From: a virus
DNA: 13,094 nt
Virus genome (UHGV): UHGV-1625130
Reading direction: 5' to 3' (one strand)
The position numbers were made by a program, and so were the translations under genes. The first letter of the stretch is position 1. Every line of letters starts with the position of its first letter. Under the pieces are notes generated by a model, which worked only from the letters and a program-made list of their open reading frames with translations, made no database searches and was not told the origin of the DNA. Shown piece after piece: positions 3,848-13,094 of this stretch.

Positions 3848-4270
3848 ATGTTCCTGAAAACCGAATCATTTGAACATAACGGTGTGACCGTCACGCTTTC
3901 TGAACTGTCAGCCCTGCAGCGTATTGAGCATCTCGCCCTGATGAAACGGCAGGCAGAACAGGCGGAGTCAGACAGCAACCGGAAGTTTACTGTGGAAGAC
4001 GCCATCAGAACCGGCGCGTTTCTGGTGGCGATGTCCCTGTGGCATAACCATCCGAAGAAGACAAAGCTGCCTTCCATGAATGAAGCCGTTAAACAGATTG
4101 AGCAGGAAGTGCTTACCACCTGGCCCACGGAGGCAATTTCTCATGCTGAAAACGTGGTGTACCGGCTGTCCGGTATGTATGAGTTTGTGGTGAATGATGC
4201 TCCTGAACAGACAGAGGACGCCGGGCCTGCAGAGCCTGTTTCTGCGGGAAAGTTTTCGACGGTGAGCTGA
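3848..4270 (+). CDS. G: Tail assembly chaperone G (zero-frame product)
   Basis: 140-aa translation MFLKTESFEHNGVTVTLSELSALQRIEHLALMKRQAEQAESD...SAGKFSTVS matches lambda gpG; GGGGAG SD upstream. Confidence 0.93.
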   Translation: MFLKTESFEHNGVTVTLSELSALQRIEHLALMKRQAEQAESDSNRKFTVEDAIRTGAFLVAMSLWHNHPKKTKLPSMNEAVKQIEQEVLTTWPTEAISHAENVVYRLSGMYEFVVNDAPEQTEDAGPAEPVSAGKFSTVS

Positions 4271-4686
4271 GTTTTGCCCTGAAACTGGCGCGTGAGATGG
4301 GGCGACCCGACTGGCGTGCCATGCTTGCCGGGATGTCATCCACGGAGTATGCCGACTGGCACCGCTTTTACAGTACCCATTATTTTCATGATGTTCTGCT
4401 GGATATGCACTTTTCCGGGCTGACGTACACCGTGCTCAGCCTGTTTTTCAGCGATCCGGATATGCATCCGCTGGATTTCAGTCTGCTGAACCGGCGTGAG
4501 GCTGACGAAGAGCCTGAAGATGATGTGCTGATGCAGAAAGCGGCAGGGCTTGCCGGAGGTGTCCGCTTTGGCCCGGACGGGAATGAAGTTATCCCTACTT
4601 CCCCGGATGTGGCGGACATGACGGAGGATGACGTAATGCTGATGACAGTATCAGAAGGGATCGCAGGAGGAGTCCGGTATGGCTGA
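3848..4686 (+). CDS. T: Tail assembly protein G-T fusion, made by -1 programmed ribosomal frameshift at 4246-4252
   Basis: After a -1 slip at G_GGA_AAG the reading continues GKVFDGELSFALKLAREMGRPDWRAMLAGMSSTEYADWHRFYSTHYFHDVLLDMHF...GIAGGVRYG, which matches the lambda gpT portion of gpGT. The T frame has no independent SD or start consistent with standalone expression. Confidence 0.85.
4246..4252 (+). promoter_or_regulatory. Slippery heptamer G GGA AAG for the G/G-T -1 frameshift
   Basis: Read directly: tct gcG GGA AAG ttt in the G frame, 6 codons before the G stop. This is the same heptamer as the lambda G-T frameshift site. Confidence 0.8.
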
Positions 4687-7258
4687 ACCGGTAGGCGATC
4701 TGGTCGTTGATTTGAGTCTGGATGCGGCCAGATTTGACGAGCAGATGGCCAGAGTCAGGCGTCATTTTTCCGGTACGGAAACTGATGCGAAAAAAACAGC
4801 GGCAGTCGTTGAACAGTCGCTGAGCCGACAGGCGCTGGCTGCACAGAAAGCGGGGATTTCCGTCGGACAGTATAAAGCCGCCATGCGTATGCTTCCTGCA
4901 CAGTTCACCGACGTGGCCACGCAGCTTGCAGGCGGGCAAAGTCCGTGGCTGATCCTGCTGCAACAGGGGGGGCAGGTTAAGGACTCCTTCGGCGGGATGA
5001 TCCCCATGTTCCGGGGGCTTGCCGGTGCGATCACCCTGCCGATGGTGGGGGCTACCTCGCTGGCGGTGGCGACCGGAGCGCTGGCGTATGCCTGGTATCA
5101 GGGCAACTCAACCCTGTCCGATTTCAACAAAACGCTGGTCCTTTCCGGCAATCAGGCGGGACTGACGGCAGATCGTATGCTGGTCCTGTCCAGAGCCGGG
5201 CAGGCGGCAGGGCTGACGTTTAACCAGACCAGCGAGTCACTGTCGGCGCTGGTGAATGCCGGTGTGCGTGGTGGTGAACAGTTTGATGCCATCAACCAGA
5301 GTGTCGCGCGTTTTGCGTCTGCATCCGGTGTGGAGGTGGATAAAGTCGCTGAAGCCTTCGGGAAGCTGACCACAGACCCGACGTCGGGGCTGACGGCGAT
5401 GGCACGCCAGTTCCATAACGTGACGGCGGAGCAGATTGCGTATGTTGCTCAGTTGCAGCGTTCCGGAGATGAAGCCGGGGCATTGCAGGCGGCGAACGAG
5501 GCCGCAACGAAAGGGTTTGATGACCAGACCCGCCGCCTGAAAGAGAACATGGGCACGCTGGAGAACTGGGCAGACAGGACAGCACGGGCATTCAAATCCA
5601 TGTGGGATTCGGTGCTGGATATTGGTCGCCCGGACACTGCCCAGGGAATGCTGGAGAAAGCAGAAAAGGCTTTTGATGAGGCGGACAAAAAATGGCAGTG
5701 GTATCAGAGCCGGAGCCACCGGCGCGGTAAAACCTCAGCATTTCTTGCCAATCTCCGGGGAGCATGGGAGGACAGAGCGAATGCGCAACTTGGGCTTTCA
5801 GCCGCCACGTTGCAGGCCGATCTTGAAAAGGCCAGAGAGATGGCAGCAAAGGACTGGGTCGAGTCTGAGGCATCACGGCTGAAATATACCGAAGAGGCGC
5901 AGAAGGCTTACGAACGCCTGCAGACGCCGCTGGAGAAATATACCGCCCGTCAGGAAGAACTGAACAAGGCACTGAAAGACGGGAAAATCCTGCAGGCGGA
6001 TTACAACACGCTGATGGCGGCGGCGAAAAAGGATTATGAAGCGACGCTGAAAAAGCCGAAACAGTCCGGCGTGAAGGTGTCTGCGGGCGATCGTCAGGAA
6101 GACAGTGCTCATGCTGCCCTGCTGACGCTTCAGGCAGAACTCCGGACGCTGGAGAAGCATGCCGGAGCGAATGAGAAAATCAGCCAGCAGCGCCGGGATT
6201 TGTGGAAGGCGGAGAGTCAGTTCGCTGTACTGGAGGAGGCGGCACAACGTCGCCAGCTGTCCGCACAGGAGAAATCCCTGCTGGCGCATAAAGATGAGAC
6301 GCTGGAGTACAAACGCCAGCTGGCTGCACTTGGCGACAAGGTTACGTATCAGGAGCGCCTGAACGCGCTGGCGCAGCAGGCGGATAAATTCGCACAGCAG
6401 CAACGGGCAAAACGGGCCGCCATTGATGCGAAAAGCCGGGGGCTGACTGACCGGCAGGCAGAACGGGAAGCCACGGAACAGCGCCTGAAGGAACAGTATG
6501 GCGATAATCCGCTGGCGCTGAATAACGTCATGTCAGAGCAGAAAAAGACCTGGACGGCTGAAGACCAGCTTCGCGGGAGCTGGATGGCAGGCCTGAAGTC
6601 CGGCTGGAGTGAGTGGGAAGAGAGCGCCACGGACAGTATGTCGCAGGTTAAAAGTGCAGCCACGCAGACCTTTGATGGTATTGCACAGAATATGGCGGCG
6701 ATGCTGACCGGCAGTGAGCAGAACTGGCGCAGCTTCACCCGTTCCGTGCTGTCCATGATGACAGAAATTCTGCTTAAGCAGGCAATGGTGGGGATTGTCG
6801 GGAGTATCGGCAGCGCCATTGGCGGGGCTGTTGGTGGCGGCGCATCCGCATCAGGCGGTACAGCCATTCAGGCAGCTGCGGCGAAATTCCATTTTGCGAC
6901 CGGAGGATTTACGGGAACCGGCGGCAAATATGAGCCAGCGGGGATTGTTCACCGTGGTGAGTTTGTCTTCACGAAGGAGGCAACCAGCCGGATTGGCGTG
7001 GGGAATCTTTACCGGCTGATGCGCGGCTCTGCCACCGGCGGTTATGTCGGTACACCGGGCAGCATGGCAGACAGCCGGTCGCAGGCGTCCGGGACGTTTG
7101 AGCAGAATAACCATGTGGTGATTAACAACGACGGCACGAACGGGCAGATAGGTCCGGCTGCTCTGAAGGCGGTGTATGACATGGCCCGCAAGGGTGCCCG
7201 TGATGAAATTCAGACACAGATGCGTGATGGTGGCCTGTTCTCCGGAGGTGGACGATGA
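4679..7258 (+). CDS. H: Tail tape measure protein H
   Basis: 859-aa translation MAEPVGDLVVDLSLDAARFDEQMARVRRHFSG...QTQMRDGGLFSGGGR; coiled-coil-rich centre, Gly-rich segment IGSAIGGAVGGGASASGGTAIQAAAAKFHFATGGFTGTGG; strong GGAGGAG SD. The ATG overlaps the end of T by 8 nt. Six codons longer than the 853 aa I recall for lambda H. Confidence 0.95.
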   Translation: MAEPVGDLVVDLSLDAARFDEQMARVRRHFSGTETDAKKTAAVVEQSLSRQALAAQKAGISVGQYKAAMRMLPAQFTDVATQLAGGQSPWLILLQQGGQVKDSFGGMIPMFRGLAGAITLPMVGATSLAVATGALAYAWYQGNSTLSDFNKTLVLSGNQAGLTADRMLVLSRAGQAAGLTFNQTSESLSALVNAGVRGGEQFDAINQSVARFASASGVEVDKVAEAFGKLTTDPTSGLTAMARQFHNVTAEQIAYVAQLQRSGDEAGALQAANEAATKGFDDQTRRLKENMGTLENWADRTARAFKSMWDSVLDIGRPDTAQGMLEKAEKAFDEADKKWQWYQSRSHRRGKTSAFLANLRGAWEDRANAQLGLSAATLQADLEKAREMAAKDWVESEASRLKYTEEAQKAYERLQTPLEKYTARQEELNKALKDGKILQADYNTLMAAAKKDYEATLKKPKQSGVKVSAGDRQEDSAHAALLTLQAELRTLEKHAGANEKISQQRRDLWKAESQFAVLEEAAQRRQLSAQEKSLLAHKDETLEYKRQLAALGDKVTYQERLNALAQQADKFAQQQRAKRAAIDAKSRGLTDRQAEREATEQRLKEQYGDNPLALNNVMSEQKKTWTAEDQLRGSWMAGLKSGWSEWEESATDSMSQVKSAATQTFDGIAQNMAAMLTGSEQNWRSFTRSVLSMMTEILLKQAMVGIVGSIGSAIGGAVGGGASASGGTAIQAAAAKFHFATGGFTGTGGKYEPAGIVHRGEFVFTKEATSRIGVGNLYRLMRGSATGGYVGTPGSMADSRSQASGTFEQNNHVVINNDGTNGQIGPAALKAVYDMARKGARDEIQTQMRDGGLFSGGGR

Positions 7259-8287: not shown

Positions 8288-9031
8288 ATGACACAGACAG
8301 AATCAGCGATTCTGGCGCACGCCCGGCGATGTGCGCCAGCGGAGTCGTGCGGCTTCGTGGTAAGCACGCCGGAGGGGGAAAGATATTTTCCCTGCGTGAA
8401 TATCTCCGGTGAGCCGGAGGCGTATTTCCGGATGTCGCCGGAGGACTGGCTGAGTGCAGAAATGCAGGGAGAGATTGTGGCGCTGGTCCACAGCCACCCC
8501 GGTGGTCTGCCCTGGCTGAGTGAGGCCGACCGGCGGCTGCAGGTGCAGAGTGATTTGCCGTGGTGGCTGGTCTGCCGGGGGACGATTCATAAGTTCCGCT
8601 GTGTGCCGCATCTCACCGGGCGGCGCTTTGAGCACGGTGTGACGGACTGTTACACACTGTTCCGGGATGCTTATCATCTGGCGGGGATTGAGATGCCGGA
8701 CTTTCATCGTGAGGATGACTGGTGGCGTAACGGCCAGAATCTCTATCTGGATAATCTGGAGGCCACAGGGCTGTATCAGGTGCCGTTGTCATCAGCACAA
8801 CCGGGCGATGTGCTGCTGTGCTGTTTTGGTTCATCGGTGCCGAATCATGCCGCCATTTACTGTGGTGACGGCGAGCTGCTGCACCATATTCCTGAACAAC
8901 TGAGCAAACGAGAGAGGTACACCGACAAATGGCAGCGACGCACACACTCCCTCTGGCGTCACCGGGCATGGCGCGCATCTGCCTTTACGGGGATTTACAA
9001 CGATTTGGCCGCCGCATCGATCTGCGTGTGA
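8288..9031 (+). CDS. K: Tail tip assembly protein K (N-terminal JAMM/MPN-like region with HSHPGGLPWLSEAD motif, C-terminal NlpC/P60-like region); alternative lambda-annotated start corresponds to ATG 8432
   Basis: 247-aa ORF MTQTESAILAHARRCAPAESCGFVVSTPEGERYF... begins 5 nt after the L stop. Residues 49-247 (MSPEDWLSAEMQGEIVALVHSHPGG...) match the 199-aa lambda K as annotated. The HxHx7SxxD motif and conserved Cys/His residues are visible in the translation. Confidence 0.85.
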   Translation: MTQTESAILAHARRCAPAESCGFVVSTPEGERYFPCVNISGEPEAYFRMSPEDWLSAEMQGEIVALVHSHPGGLPWLSEADRRLQVQSDLPWWLVCRGTIHKFRCVPHLTGRRFEHGVTDCYTLFRDAYHLAGIEMPDFHREDDWWRNGQNLYLDNLEATGLYQVPLSSAQPGDVLLCCFGSSVPNHAAIYCGDGELLHHIPEQLSKRERYTDKWQRRTHSLWRHRAWRASAFTGIYNDLAAASICV

Positions 9032-9660: not shown

Positions 9661-12600
9661 ATGGGTAAAGGCAGCAGTAAGGGGCATACCCCGCGCGAAG
9701 CGAAGGACAACCTGAAGTCCACGCAGTTGCTGAGTGTGATCGATGCCATCAGCGAAGGGCCGATTGAAGGTCCGGTGGATGGATTAAAAAGCGTGCTGCT
9801 GAACAGTACGCCGGTGCTGGACAGTGAGGGGAATACCAATATATCCGGTGTCACGGTGGTGTTCCGGGCAGGTGAGCAGGAGCAGACACCGCCGGAGGGA
9901 TTTGAATCCTCCGGCTCCGAGACGGTGCTGGGTACGGAAGTGAAATATGACACGCCGATCACCCGGACCATCACGTCGGCAAACATCGACCGTCTGCGCT
10001 TTACCTTCGGTGTGCAGGCACTGGTGGAAACCACCTCAAAGGGGGACCGGAATCCGTCGGAAGTCCGCCTGCTGGTTCAGATCCAGCGTAATGGTGGCTG
10101 GGTGACGGAAAAAGACATCACCATTAAGGGCAAAACCACCTCGCAGTATCTGGCCTCGGTGGTGGTGGGTAACCTGCCGCCGCGCCCGTTCAATATCCGG
10201 ATGCGCAGGATGACGCCGGACAGCACCACAGACCAGCTGCAGAACAAAACGCTCTGGTCGTCATACACCGAAATCATCGATGTGAAACAGTGCTACCCGA
10301 ACACGGCACTGGTCGGCGTGCAGGTGGATTCGGAGCAGTTCGGCAGCCAGCAGGTGAGCCGTAATTATCATCTGCGCGGGCGCATTCTGCAGGTGCCGTC
10401 GAACTATAACCCGCAGACGCGGCAATACAGCGGTATCTGGGACGGAACGTTTAAGCCAGCATACAGCAACAACATGGCCTGGTGTCTGTGGGATATGCTG
10501 ACCCATCCGCGCTACGGCATGGGGAAACGTCTTGGTGCGGCGGATGTGGACAAATGGGCGCTGTATGTCATCGGCCAGTACTGCGACCAGTCAGTGCCGG
10601 ACGGCTTTGGCGGCACGGAGCCGCGCATCACCTGTAATGCGTACCTGACCACACAACGTAAGGCGTGGGATGTGCTCAGTGATTTCTGCTCGGCGATGCG
10701 CTGTATGCCGGTATGGAACGGGCAGACGCTGACGTTCGTGCAGGACCGACCGTCGGATAAGGTGTGGACCTATAACCGCAGTAATGTGGTGATGCCGGAT
10801 GATGGCGCGCCGTTCCGCTACAGCTTCAGCGCCCTGAAGGACCGCCATAATGCCGTTGAGGTGAACTGGATTGACCCGAATAACGGCTGGGAGACGGCGA
10901 CAGAGCTTGTGGAGGACACGCAGGCCATTGCCCGTTACGGTCGTAACGTCACGAAGATGGATGCTTTTGGCTGTACCAGCCGGGGGCAGGCACACCGCGC
11001 CGGGCTGTGGCTGATTAAAACAGAACTGCTGGAAACGCAGACCGTGGACTTCAGCGTGGGTGCCGAAGGGCTTCGCCATGTACCGGGCGATGTCATTGAA
11101 ATCTGCGATGATGACTATGCGGGTATCAGCACCGGCGGGCGCGTGCTGGCGGTGAACAGCCAGACCCGGACGCTGACGCTCGACCGTGAAATCACGCTGC
11201 CATCCTCCGGTACCACGCTGATAAGCCTGGTTGACGGAAGTGGCAATCCGGTCAGCGTGGAGGTTCAGTCCGTCACCGACGGCGTGAAGGTGAAAGTGAG
11301 CCGTGTTCCTGACGGCGTTGCTGAATACAGCGTGTGGGGGCTGAAGCTGCCGACGCTGCGCCAGCGCCTGTTCCGCTGCGTGAGTATCCGTGAGAACGAC
11401 GACGGCACGTATGCCATCACCGCCGTGCAGCATGTACCGGAAAAAGAGGCCATCGTGGATAACGGGGCGCACTTTGACGGCGACCAGAGCGGCACGGTGA
11501 ATGGTGTCACGCCGCCAGCGGTGCAGCACCTGACCGCCGAAGTCACCGCAGACAGCGGGGAATATCAGGTGCTGGCGCGCTGGGACACGCCGAAGGTGGT
11601 GAAGGGCGTGAGCTTCCTGCTTCGCCTGACCGTGGCAGCGGATGACGGCCGTGAGCGGCTGGTCAGCACGGCCCGGACGACGGAAACCACTTACCGCTTC
11701 ACACAACTGGCTCTGGGGAACTACAGGCTGACAGTCCGGGCAGTAAATGCGTGGGGGCAGCAGGGCGATCCGGCGTCGGTATCGTTCCGGATTGCCGCAC
11801 CGGCAGCGCCGTCGCGGATTGAGCTGACGCCGGGCTATTTTCAGATAACCGCCACGCCGCATCTTGCGGTTTATGACCCGACGGTACAGTTTGAGTTCTG
11901 GTTCTCGGAAAAACGGATTGCGGATATCAGGCAGGTTGAAACCAGCGCGCGTTATCTTGGTACGGCACTGTACTGGATAGCCGCCAGTATCAATATCAAA
12001 CCGGGCCATGATTATTATTTTTACGTTCGCAGTGTGAACACCGTTGGCAAATCGGCATTCGTGGAGGCTGTCGGTCGGGCGAGCGATGATGCGGAAGGTT
12101 ACCTGGATTTTTTCAAAGGCAAGATAACCGAATCCCATCTTGGTAAAGAGCTGCTGGAAAAAGTCGACCTGACGGAGGATAACGCCAGCAAACTGGAGCA
12201 GTTTTCGAAAGAGTGGAAGGATGCTAACGATAAGTGGAATGCCATGTGGGGCGTCAAAATTGAGCAGACCAAAGACGGCAAACATTATGTCGCGGGTATT
12301 GGCCTCAGCATGGAGGACACGGAGGAAGGTAAACTGAGCCAGTTCCTGGTTGCCGCTAACCGTATCGCGTTTATTGACCCGGCAAACGGAAATGAAACGC
12401 CGATGTTTGTGGCGCAGGGTGATCAGATATTCATGAATGACGTGTTCCTGAAACGCCTGACGGCCCCCACCATTACCAGCGGTGGAAATCCACCGGCATT
12501 TTCCCTGACACCGGACGGAAAGCTGACCGCTAAAAATGCGGATATCAGTGGCAGTGTGAATGCGAACGCCGGGACGCTCAACAATGTCACGGTAAATGAA

Positions 12601-13074
12601 AACTGTACGATTAAGGGCATGCTGGAGGCGACCCAGGTCAGAGGGGATTTCGTTAAAGCTGTATCAAAAGCCTTCCCGAAAAAAGTCGGTACGTGGGGTA
12701 ACACGGAAACACCAAACGGTACGGTTACAGTCACCATCAGCGATGATCATAACTTTGACCGTCAAATCATTATTCCGCCCATTATCTTTAACGGAATAGC
12801 GTATAGCGATCCGGGAAGTGGTAATAACCCGGGAGGTACAAGATACACGGGTTATGGTTTTGAAGTTCGCAAAAACGGTGTATTAATCGCATCCAGAGAA
12901 ACTAAAGGGGCCATTCCCGGTAGCTACAGTGCGGTTATTGATATGCCGAGTGGCAGGGGAAGCGTCACTCTGGAGTTTAAGGTTTTCCAGAAAGGCAATC
13001 AGGGGGCAGGCAATATCACCGACTGTACGGTGATTGTGACCAAAAAAGCCGCTTCCGGCATCAGTATTCGTTGA
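9661..13074 (+). CDS. J: Central tail fibre / tail tip host-specificity protein J (two FN3-like repeats in the 11.5-12.1 kb region; diverged C-terminal receptor-binding module)
   Basis: 1137-aa translation [54 protein letters not shown]... matches lambda gpJ over most of its length; GAGGA SD; TGA stop at 13072-13074. About 5 codons longer than lambda J as recalled, with the C-terminal ~150 aa differing. Confidence 0.95.
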
Positions 13075-13094
13075 AATATTTATAACCCCAATAA

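Follow-up and report, generated by a model that had tools for sequence, protein, structure and literature searches.

Gene J of lambda-like phages encodes the tip attachment protein (gpJ), or central tail fibre, and the C-terminal receptor-binding domain (RBD) of lambda gpJ has been resolved on its receptor LamB (PDB 8XCJ/8XCK; PMC11101478). That domain reaches into the LamB trimer with four bottom loops, and the tail tip opens in response to binding (PMC11101478). Phage 434 is reported to use OmpC, and lambda carrying the tail-fibre gene of 434 (h434) to bind OmpC instead of LamB (PMC3509688, PMC11101478); the 434 J tip has also been modelled with AlphaFold3, docked on trimeric OmpC (PMC12502783). 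Natural C-terminal portions of gpJ grafted onto lambda gpJ, with stf removed, redirect particles to OmpC (Brodel et al. 2024, PMC11338833). One of these is the A8 chimera (PDB 9WCA/9WCB), in which a natural J C-terminus was placed on lambda J and the particle was redirected to OmpC (PMC11338833), which shows that a change confined to the C-terminal portion of J is enough to switch the receptor. Residues 960-1132 of J have been termed the "specificity region", an independently recombining module whose phylogeny is incongruent with that of the rest of J (Maddamsetti et al. 2018, PMC6646904). Here we analyze the J gene of UHGV virus genome UHGV-1625130, a stretch of 13,094 nucleotides (nt) referred to below as the window. 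This gene carries a 434-type specificity cassette that was very probably acquired by homologous recombination and is predicted to dock on OmpC instead of LamB.

Comparison of open reading frames (ORFs) and annotations showed that the late operon of a lambda-like phage spans the window from the end of D through J, in the order D-E-FI-FII-Z-U-V-G-T-H-M-L-K-I-J. J follows K and I as the last gene of the contig, and only 20 nt separate its stop codon from the contig end. In blastn searches, the window DNA was 94-100% identical to lambda over nearly its full length. The Pfam architecture of J comprises FNIII-A_GpJ, Phage-tail_3, Ig_J, Ig_J_second, Phage_Tail_Tip and Ig_GpJ_C, all well above their cut-offs, and with this architecture and gene position the window J is a lambda-type tip attachment protein. 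At the DNA level the whole gene is 96-97% identical to J of Perceval, ev207 and 434 (approximately 96.7% for Perceval and ev207). The exact protein is known from one contig of the European Nucleotide Archive (ENA) only, ERZ507980 NODE_922, which is the window itself, and the closest match among complete Escherichia coli genomes reaches 97.8%. The gene and its main parts are as follows.

9661-13074, plus strand: gene J, tip attachment protein / central tail fibre, 1137 amino acids (aa), from the ORF and its translation
9661-12567, plus strand: lambda-like J body, aa 1-969, with hub domains, FNIII/Ig domains, alpha-helical shaft and central straight fibre
12568-12660, plus strand: junction zone, aa 970-1000, a semi-conserved linker from the straight fibre to the Ig domain along which identity to lambda decays
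12661-13068, plus strand: predicted Ig-like RBD of 434 type, aa 1001-1136 (Pfam PF12421 Ig_GpJ_C)

The window J was aligned with its counterparts from lambda, 434, Perceval and cdtI. Compared separately with lambda J, the two portions of the protein gave very unequal identities, 98.2% (949/966) for aa 1-966 and 40.1% (71/177 aligned columns) for aa 967-1137. In 10-residue bins the agreement is 10/10 through aa 969 and then falls to 6/10, 7/10, 5/10, 5/10 and 1/10. The body DNA retains 92-100% identity to lambda per 90-nt window in an unbroken blastn alignment; additional nt mismatches start at 12568 (aa 970), and blastn similarity stops at window position 12630, leaving the last ~440 nt without detectable similarity. 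The original prediction, made from the letters of the window alone, had claimed that the C-terminus of J diverges from lambda J at 12560-13074 as a module of different ancestry. Its start coordinate was essentially right, with the true break at 12568, and the C-terminal peptide it quoted matches the translation. The divergent block thus extends from aa 970 to the end of the protein and represents a further instance of the described specificity region (960-1132; PMC6646904), from which it differs in nothing substantive.

Four indels relative to lambda accompany the divergence.

12694-12699, plus strand: indel 1, +2 aa (W1012, G1013), at lambda residue ~1011/1012
12820-12837, plus strand: indel 2, +6 aa (GNNPGG, aa 1054-1059), at lambda residue ~1051
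12919-12921, plus strand: indel 3, +1 aa (G1087), at lambda residue ~1078
12985-13017, plus strand: indel 4 region, aa 1109-1119, with 2 aa gained and 6 aa lost against lambda residues 1099-1114

Indel hot spots in J have been reported at residues 1012, 1048-1049, 1077-1078 and 1107 (Maddamsetti et al. 2018, PMC6646904). All four window indels lie at or near them: the first coincides with 1012, the second is near 1048-1049, the third matches 1077-1078 and the fourth spans 1107. A lambda-type, LamB-binding specificity region was considered and rejected for this block on the basis of its low identity to lambda and the indels at all four positions.

Phage 434 J (UMO75286.1) provides the closest described counterpart. 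It has the same length, 1137 aa, is 98.1% identical to the window J over aa 1-966 and 95.3% identical over aa 967-1137 (163/171), and shares both the indel pattern and the junction with lambda-like sequence. Across that junction the 434 and window genes align gaplessly at 91-99% nt identity, and over aa 1-966 lambda J and 434 J are themselves 98.0% identical. The same 171 residues align without gaps to J of Perceval at 97.1% and of cdtI at 98.2%, and RBDs 95-98% identical to that of the window occur in the prophage-derived phages cdtI, Perceval (from E. coli LF82), ev207, ev243, 2B8, mEp460, Ayreon and many long-tailed Stx1a/Stx2c prophages. Near-identity over aa 967-1137, the common indel pattern and the common junction identify the block as a 434-type specificity cassette. 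The window differs from 434 at eight cassette residues and, apart from one short patch described below, its cassette is mostly closer to those of cdtI and Perceval.

The Ig_GpJ_C profile matched with E = 5.5e-27 (94.9 bits against a cut-off of 26.2) over profile positions 1-134 of 135. A phmmer search of PDB sequences matched query residues 1-170 to A8 gpJ (9wca) with E = 3.4e-38 and also recovered lambda gpJ, full-length (8xcj, E = 9.6e-30; 8xck/8iyk likewise at E ~1e-29). By these matches the module is homologous to the lambda RBD and falls into the 434 sequence class, and homology to the solved structures points to an Ig-like beta-sandwich fold. It shares with the lambda RBD the homologous Ig-like domain and the position at the tip of the trimeric fibre, and differs from it in sequence (40% identity), in indels at all four variable regions and in reported receptor, OmpC rather than LamB. 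A8 gpJ, representing the RBD type of YYZ-2008 and Stx2a prophages, is the best match among solved structures, but at ~46% identity to the window RBD it forms a separate cassette class. An assignment to this A8/YYZ-2008 type was rejected, as the window is only 46% identical to YYZ-2008 and Stx2a_JNE121849, which match the A8 sequence.

The 171 aa were compared by tblastn with 50,697 phage records, and seven further J C-termini were collected and aligned over 400 residues each. The tblastn matches are discontinuous: identity reaches at least 90% in 74 records and stays below 60% in 169, and the band of 60-90% is empty. The alignment contains at least five RBD classes (the 434 type, the lambda type, the A8/4A7/YYZ-2008 type, the PhiR40/WGPS2 type and the 1720a-02 type), and these are freely combined with at least two types of shaft. 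Phage 4A7, for example, joins a lambda-like shaft (0.92-0.94) to an A8-like RBD (0.82-0.89), and phage cdtI joins an Stx-like shaft (0.63) to a 434-type RBD (0.98). Upstream of the variable portion, the linker pattern NAN.GTL.NVT..ENC.I.G.L.A...GD.VK is kept across all five classes (11 J sequences compared), and the stretch FSLTP.G.LTA.NADISG…GTLNNVT..ENC is conserved in all classes just 5' of the divergent block. Such a stretch, common to every class, offers a natural site for homologous crossover, and the junction zone at 12568-12660 is the likely site of exchange.

These data bear on the alternative that no exchange took place and that a lambda-type C-terminus was changed in place by rapid positive selection on receptor binding. 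The specificity region is indeed a hot spot of adaptive substitution in laboratory evolution (PMC6646904, PMC11336670), and framework residues amounting to 40% identity are still held in common with lambda. Gradual change of this kind is nonetheless highly improbable here: the contig is otherwise 94-100% (~97%) identical to lambda DNA, yet its last ~440 nt lack blastn similarity; the cassette recurs, 95-98% identical, in phages that differ in shaft and genome; and the gap in the records at 60-90% identity, together with the four indels, is not what stepwise divergence would leave. The comparisons instead support a real mosaic exchange, in which a module of ancestry other than lambda's sits on an otherwise lambda-like J, as the original prediction had proposed; the near-identical C-termini of 434, Perceval and cdtI, found on differing shafts, bear that proposal out. 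Exchange of this kind is a long-known and ordinary feature of lambdoid phages (PMC6646904) and is not peculiar to the window phage. The data set of that study included mEp460, cdtI and Ayreon, all of which carry the cassette type of the window.

The alpha-helical shaft of J (aa ~810-910, window ~12090-12400) is another exchangeable module. An alternative version, 28 aa longer and occupying J aa ~800-900, is present in cdtI, phiSTEC1575-Stx2k, ev243 and many Stx prophages, and its aa identity to the window is 37-46% in 50-aa windows. Shaft module and receptor-binding cassette combine independently.

Within the cassette, one short segment has a separate affinity.

12633-12687, plus strand: 434-like patch inside the cassette, 55 nt, in which ten consecutive informative sites match 434 and not cdtI/Perceval

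The flanks of this patch, 12568-12600 and 12762-13003, match cdtI/Perceval and not 434. The 52 informative sites (12 of one kind, 40 of the other) fall into only 7 runs, and none of 100,000 permutations gave so few. The patch encodes A1004, K1008 and V1009. A 434-like segment within a cdtI/Perceval-like cassette indicates that gene conversion also occurs within a single cassette class.

A mixture of reads could likewise have yielded such a patch, and the window is in fact an entire metagenome contig (ENA ERZ507980, NODE_922) with a coverage of 2.75, in which a 14-nt frameshifting deletion in gene Z could be an assembly error. It might accordingly be proposed that the assembler joined reads of two co-occurring lambdoid prophages across the conserved linker. 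We give this proposal almost no credence, because a lambda-like body with a 434-type tip is found in isolated, fully sequenced phages (434, Perceval, ev207, 2B8 and mEp460), and these align to the window along the entire J gene as one continuous match of 95-97% identity. Such a pairing of body and tip thus occurs in nature even if the contig should be chimeric in detail. The cassette is widespread: about 2,089 of 5,426 complete E. coli genomes have a match covering at least 80% of 12400-13094, and the 434-type tip is among the commonest J tips in E. coli.

From these comparisons a mechanism can be proposed. Positions 12568-13074 encode the 434-type specificity region, consisting of a short linker and the C-terminal Ig-like RBD, and in the J trimer the C-terminal domains would form the distal tip of the central tail fibre. 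The domain framework appears to have been retained while the four loop/indel regions were swapped for their 434 versions; these four regions may correspond to the four loops that contact LamB in lambda. With 434 versions of these regions, the tip is predicted to bind OmpC, the porin that 434 reportedly uses, instead of LamB. The J machinery upstream is identical to that of lambda, so the trigger mechanism is presumably the same. The cassette would have entered a lambda-like J lineage by homologous recombination, with one crossover in the conserved straight-fibre/linker sequence just upstream and a second 3' of J, at a position we infer to lie past the contig end. The 55-nt patch indicates that cassettes of one type have in addition undergone gene conversion with each other.

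Several observations weigh against this account or against parts of it, the first of them concerning base composition. The original prediction had described the module as compositionally distinct in guanine-cytosine (GC) content. Its figures for 60-nt blocks were exact (68.3% at 11461-11520; 48.3, 45.0, 45.0 and 40.0% for the four blocks of 12661-12900), and the final 513 nt of J have a GC of 0.481 against 0.575 for the remaining contig (z = -4.3), with the lowest-GC 513-nt window of the contig beginning at 12580. The GC of third codon positions (GC3) also declines along J, from 0.74 (nt 1-2160) through 0.59 (nt 2161-2898) to 0.50 in the last 513 nt. A discontinuity is thus present, but its main step is elsewhere.

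11835, no strand: main GC change point in J, 0.605 upstream and 0.497 downstream (likelihood change-point scan)

This position is ~730 nt upstream of the homology break. The surrounding sequence is 94-99% identical to lambda, and a change point is also present there in lambda J itself, from 0.593 to 0.532. The receptor-binding module is not significantly lower in GC than the preceding 724 nt (GC 0.51; z = -1.28), although its 0.481 is below the 0.546 of the last 513 nt in lambda. Because the main step is shared with lambda and is so far upstream, the low GC is not evidence for exchange, and GC was rejected as a marker of the junction; the composition is compatible with a separate history of the module but does not locate its boundary. 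The distinctness of the module in the earlier claim thus held as regards its GC minimum and failed as regards the position of the step.

Structural modeling offered no independent help, as a single-sequence AlphaFold2 model of aa 967-1137 was mostly beta with a mean predicted local distance difference test (pLDDT) score of 50.1, too poor to be used. The remaining points concern the receptor. Over the last 171 aa the window differs from 434 by eight substitutions (window residue first), namely A970S, V978I, E980Q, N1019D, S1049D, R1099G, Q1110H and G1115R. Four of these, S1049D, R1099G, Q1110H and G1115R, are no more than ~5 residues away from an indel region, and N1019D is six away from indel 1. 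With several of the differences close to indel regions, specificity for OmpC alleles could differ from that of 434. The classical hybrid is also less decisive than its name suggests. Lambda h434 imm21 (OM418627.1) switches from lambda to 434 sequence at J nt 2115-2133 (~aa 705-711) and additionally has the 434 lom, stf (side tail fibre) and tfa (tail fibre assembly) genes. "h434" is therefore more than a J tip, and OmpC use cannot be traced to the last 170 residues from this hybrid by itself. Moreover, the A8/YYZ-2008 RBD types also use OmpC (PMC11338833) while being only 43-46% identical to that of the window, indicating that receptor identity does not map simply onto sequence class. A literature search for receptor data on Perceval, ev207, mEp460, Ayreon and phi458 found none.

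A cassette of 434 type could accordingly recognize something other than the OmpC of K-12, either certain OmpC alleles only or another porin such as OmpF. The eight substitutions, several in or beside indel regions, leave room for such a shift. The A8 and 1A2 gpJ chimeras accept different OmpC alleles (PMC11338833), one or a few substitutions alter porin use in lambda and phage 21 (PMC11336670), and the classical h434 hybrid carries 434 side-fibre genes as well. We consider a receptor of this kind unlikely, since the cassette is 95% identical to that of 434 with an identical indel pattern, and 97% identical to those of phages propagated on K-12 strains (Ayreon on K12 and PhiR26_1 on MG1655, hosts according to the records). 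For a 434-type cassette acquired by recombination, OmpC is predicted to be the most likely receptor of the window J tip. This agrees with the claim of the original prediction that the receptor would differ from lambda's, a claim in line with the reported OmpC use by 434 and lambda h434 (PMC3509688, PMC11101478), though for the window phage it remains a prediction. There is also a small but appreciable chance that the tip, as a recombinant within the 434 class whose 434-like patch adjoins the first variable loop and which has loop-proximal substitutions relative to 434, recognizes another selection of the highly polymorphic OmpC alleles, or a further porin. If so, short gene-conversion patches in the RBD would represent natural fine-tuning of host range below the level of whole-cassette exchange.

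Two further features concern the J body. A 32-residue peptide of lambda J triggers HepS, the abortive-infection nuclease of Gifsy-1 (PMC13043305). The corresponding peptide is kept in the window J at aa 902-933 (12364-12459), including the key residue F924 and with N921D as the sole difference, and the window phage would be predicted to be sensed by HepS. On the minus strand, an antisense ORF of 564 aa lies inside J at 10591-12285, largely in the stretch where GC3 is high, and probably results from codon bias.

Other genes of the contig also depart from lambda. Gene Z (2128-2692), which encodes the tail completion protein, lacks 14 nt that are present in lambda, 434 and phiSTEC1575-Stx2k and is disrupted as a result. 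The missing letters, TCGCGCCGCAGGCG, would fall between 2403 and 2404, flanked by two TCG repeats, and without them the gene is split into overlapping ORFs at 2128-2409 and 2387-2692; either the prophage is defective or, at 2.7x coverage, the assembly is in error here. A second mosaic patch is found in gene H, encoding the tape measure protein (4679-7258; 859 aa against 853 in lambda), where blastn matched positions 5665-5866 to neither lambda nor 434 but their identity to phiSTEC1575-Stx2k is ~100%, and where identity to lambda falls to 86% at 5201-5400. The slippery heptamer GGGAAAG for the G/GT -1 frameshift is located at 4246-4252, close to where the G homologue (3848-4270) ends, as in lambda. 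For the K homologue, an in-frame ATG further upstream, at 8288, gives 247 aa (8288-9031), compared with 199 aa from the called gene start at 8432; the longer form is annotated in the 434 record and the shorter in the lambda RefSeq entry.

With regard to annotation, the contig belongs to a lambda-like prophage or phage, and its central tail fibre should be labelled 434-type, with OmpC and not LamB as its predicted receptor; beyond annotation the finding has little significance. For lambdoid phages in general, a dip in GC is an unreliable marker of a mosaic junction, and the receptor has to be deduced from the last ~170 residues of J alone, as the other 85% of the protein is silent on it. Such cassettes are useful for retargeting lambda-based delivery particles (PMC11338833), and the type carried by the window is already present in thousands of sequenced genomes.

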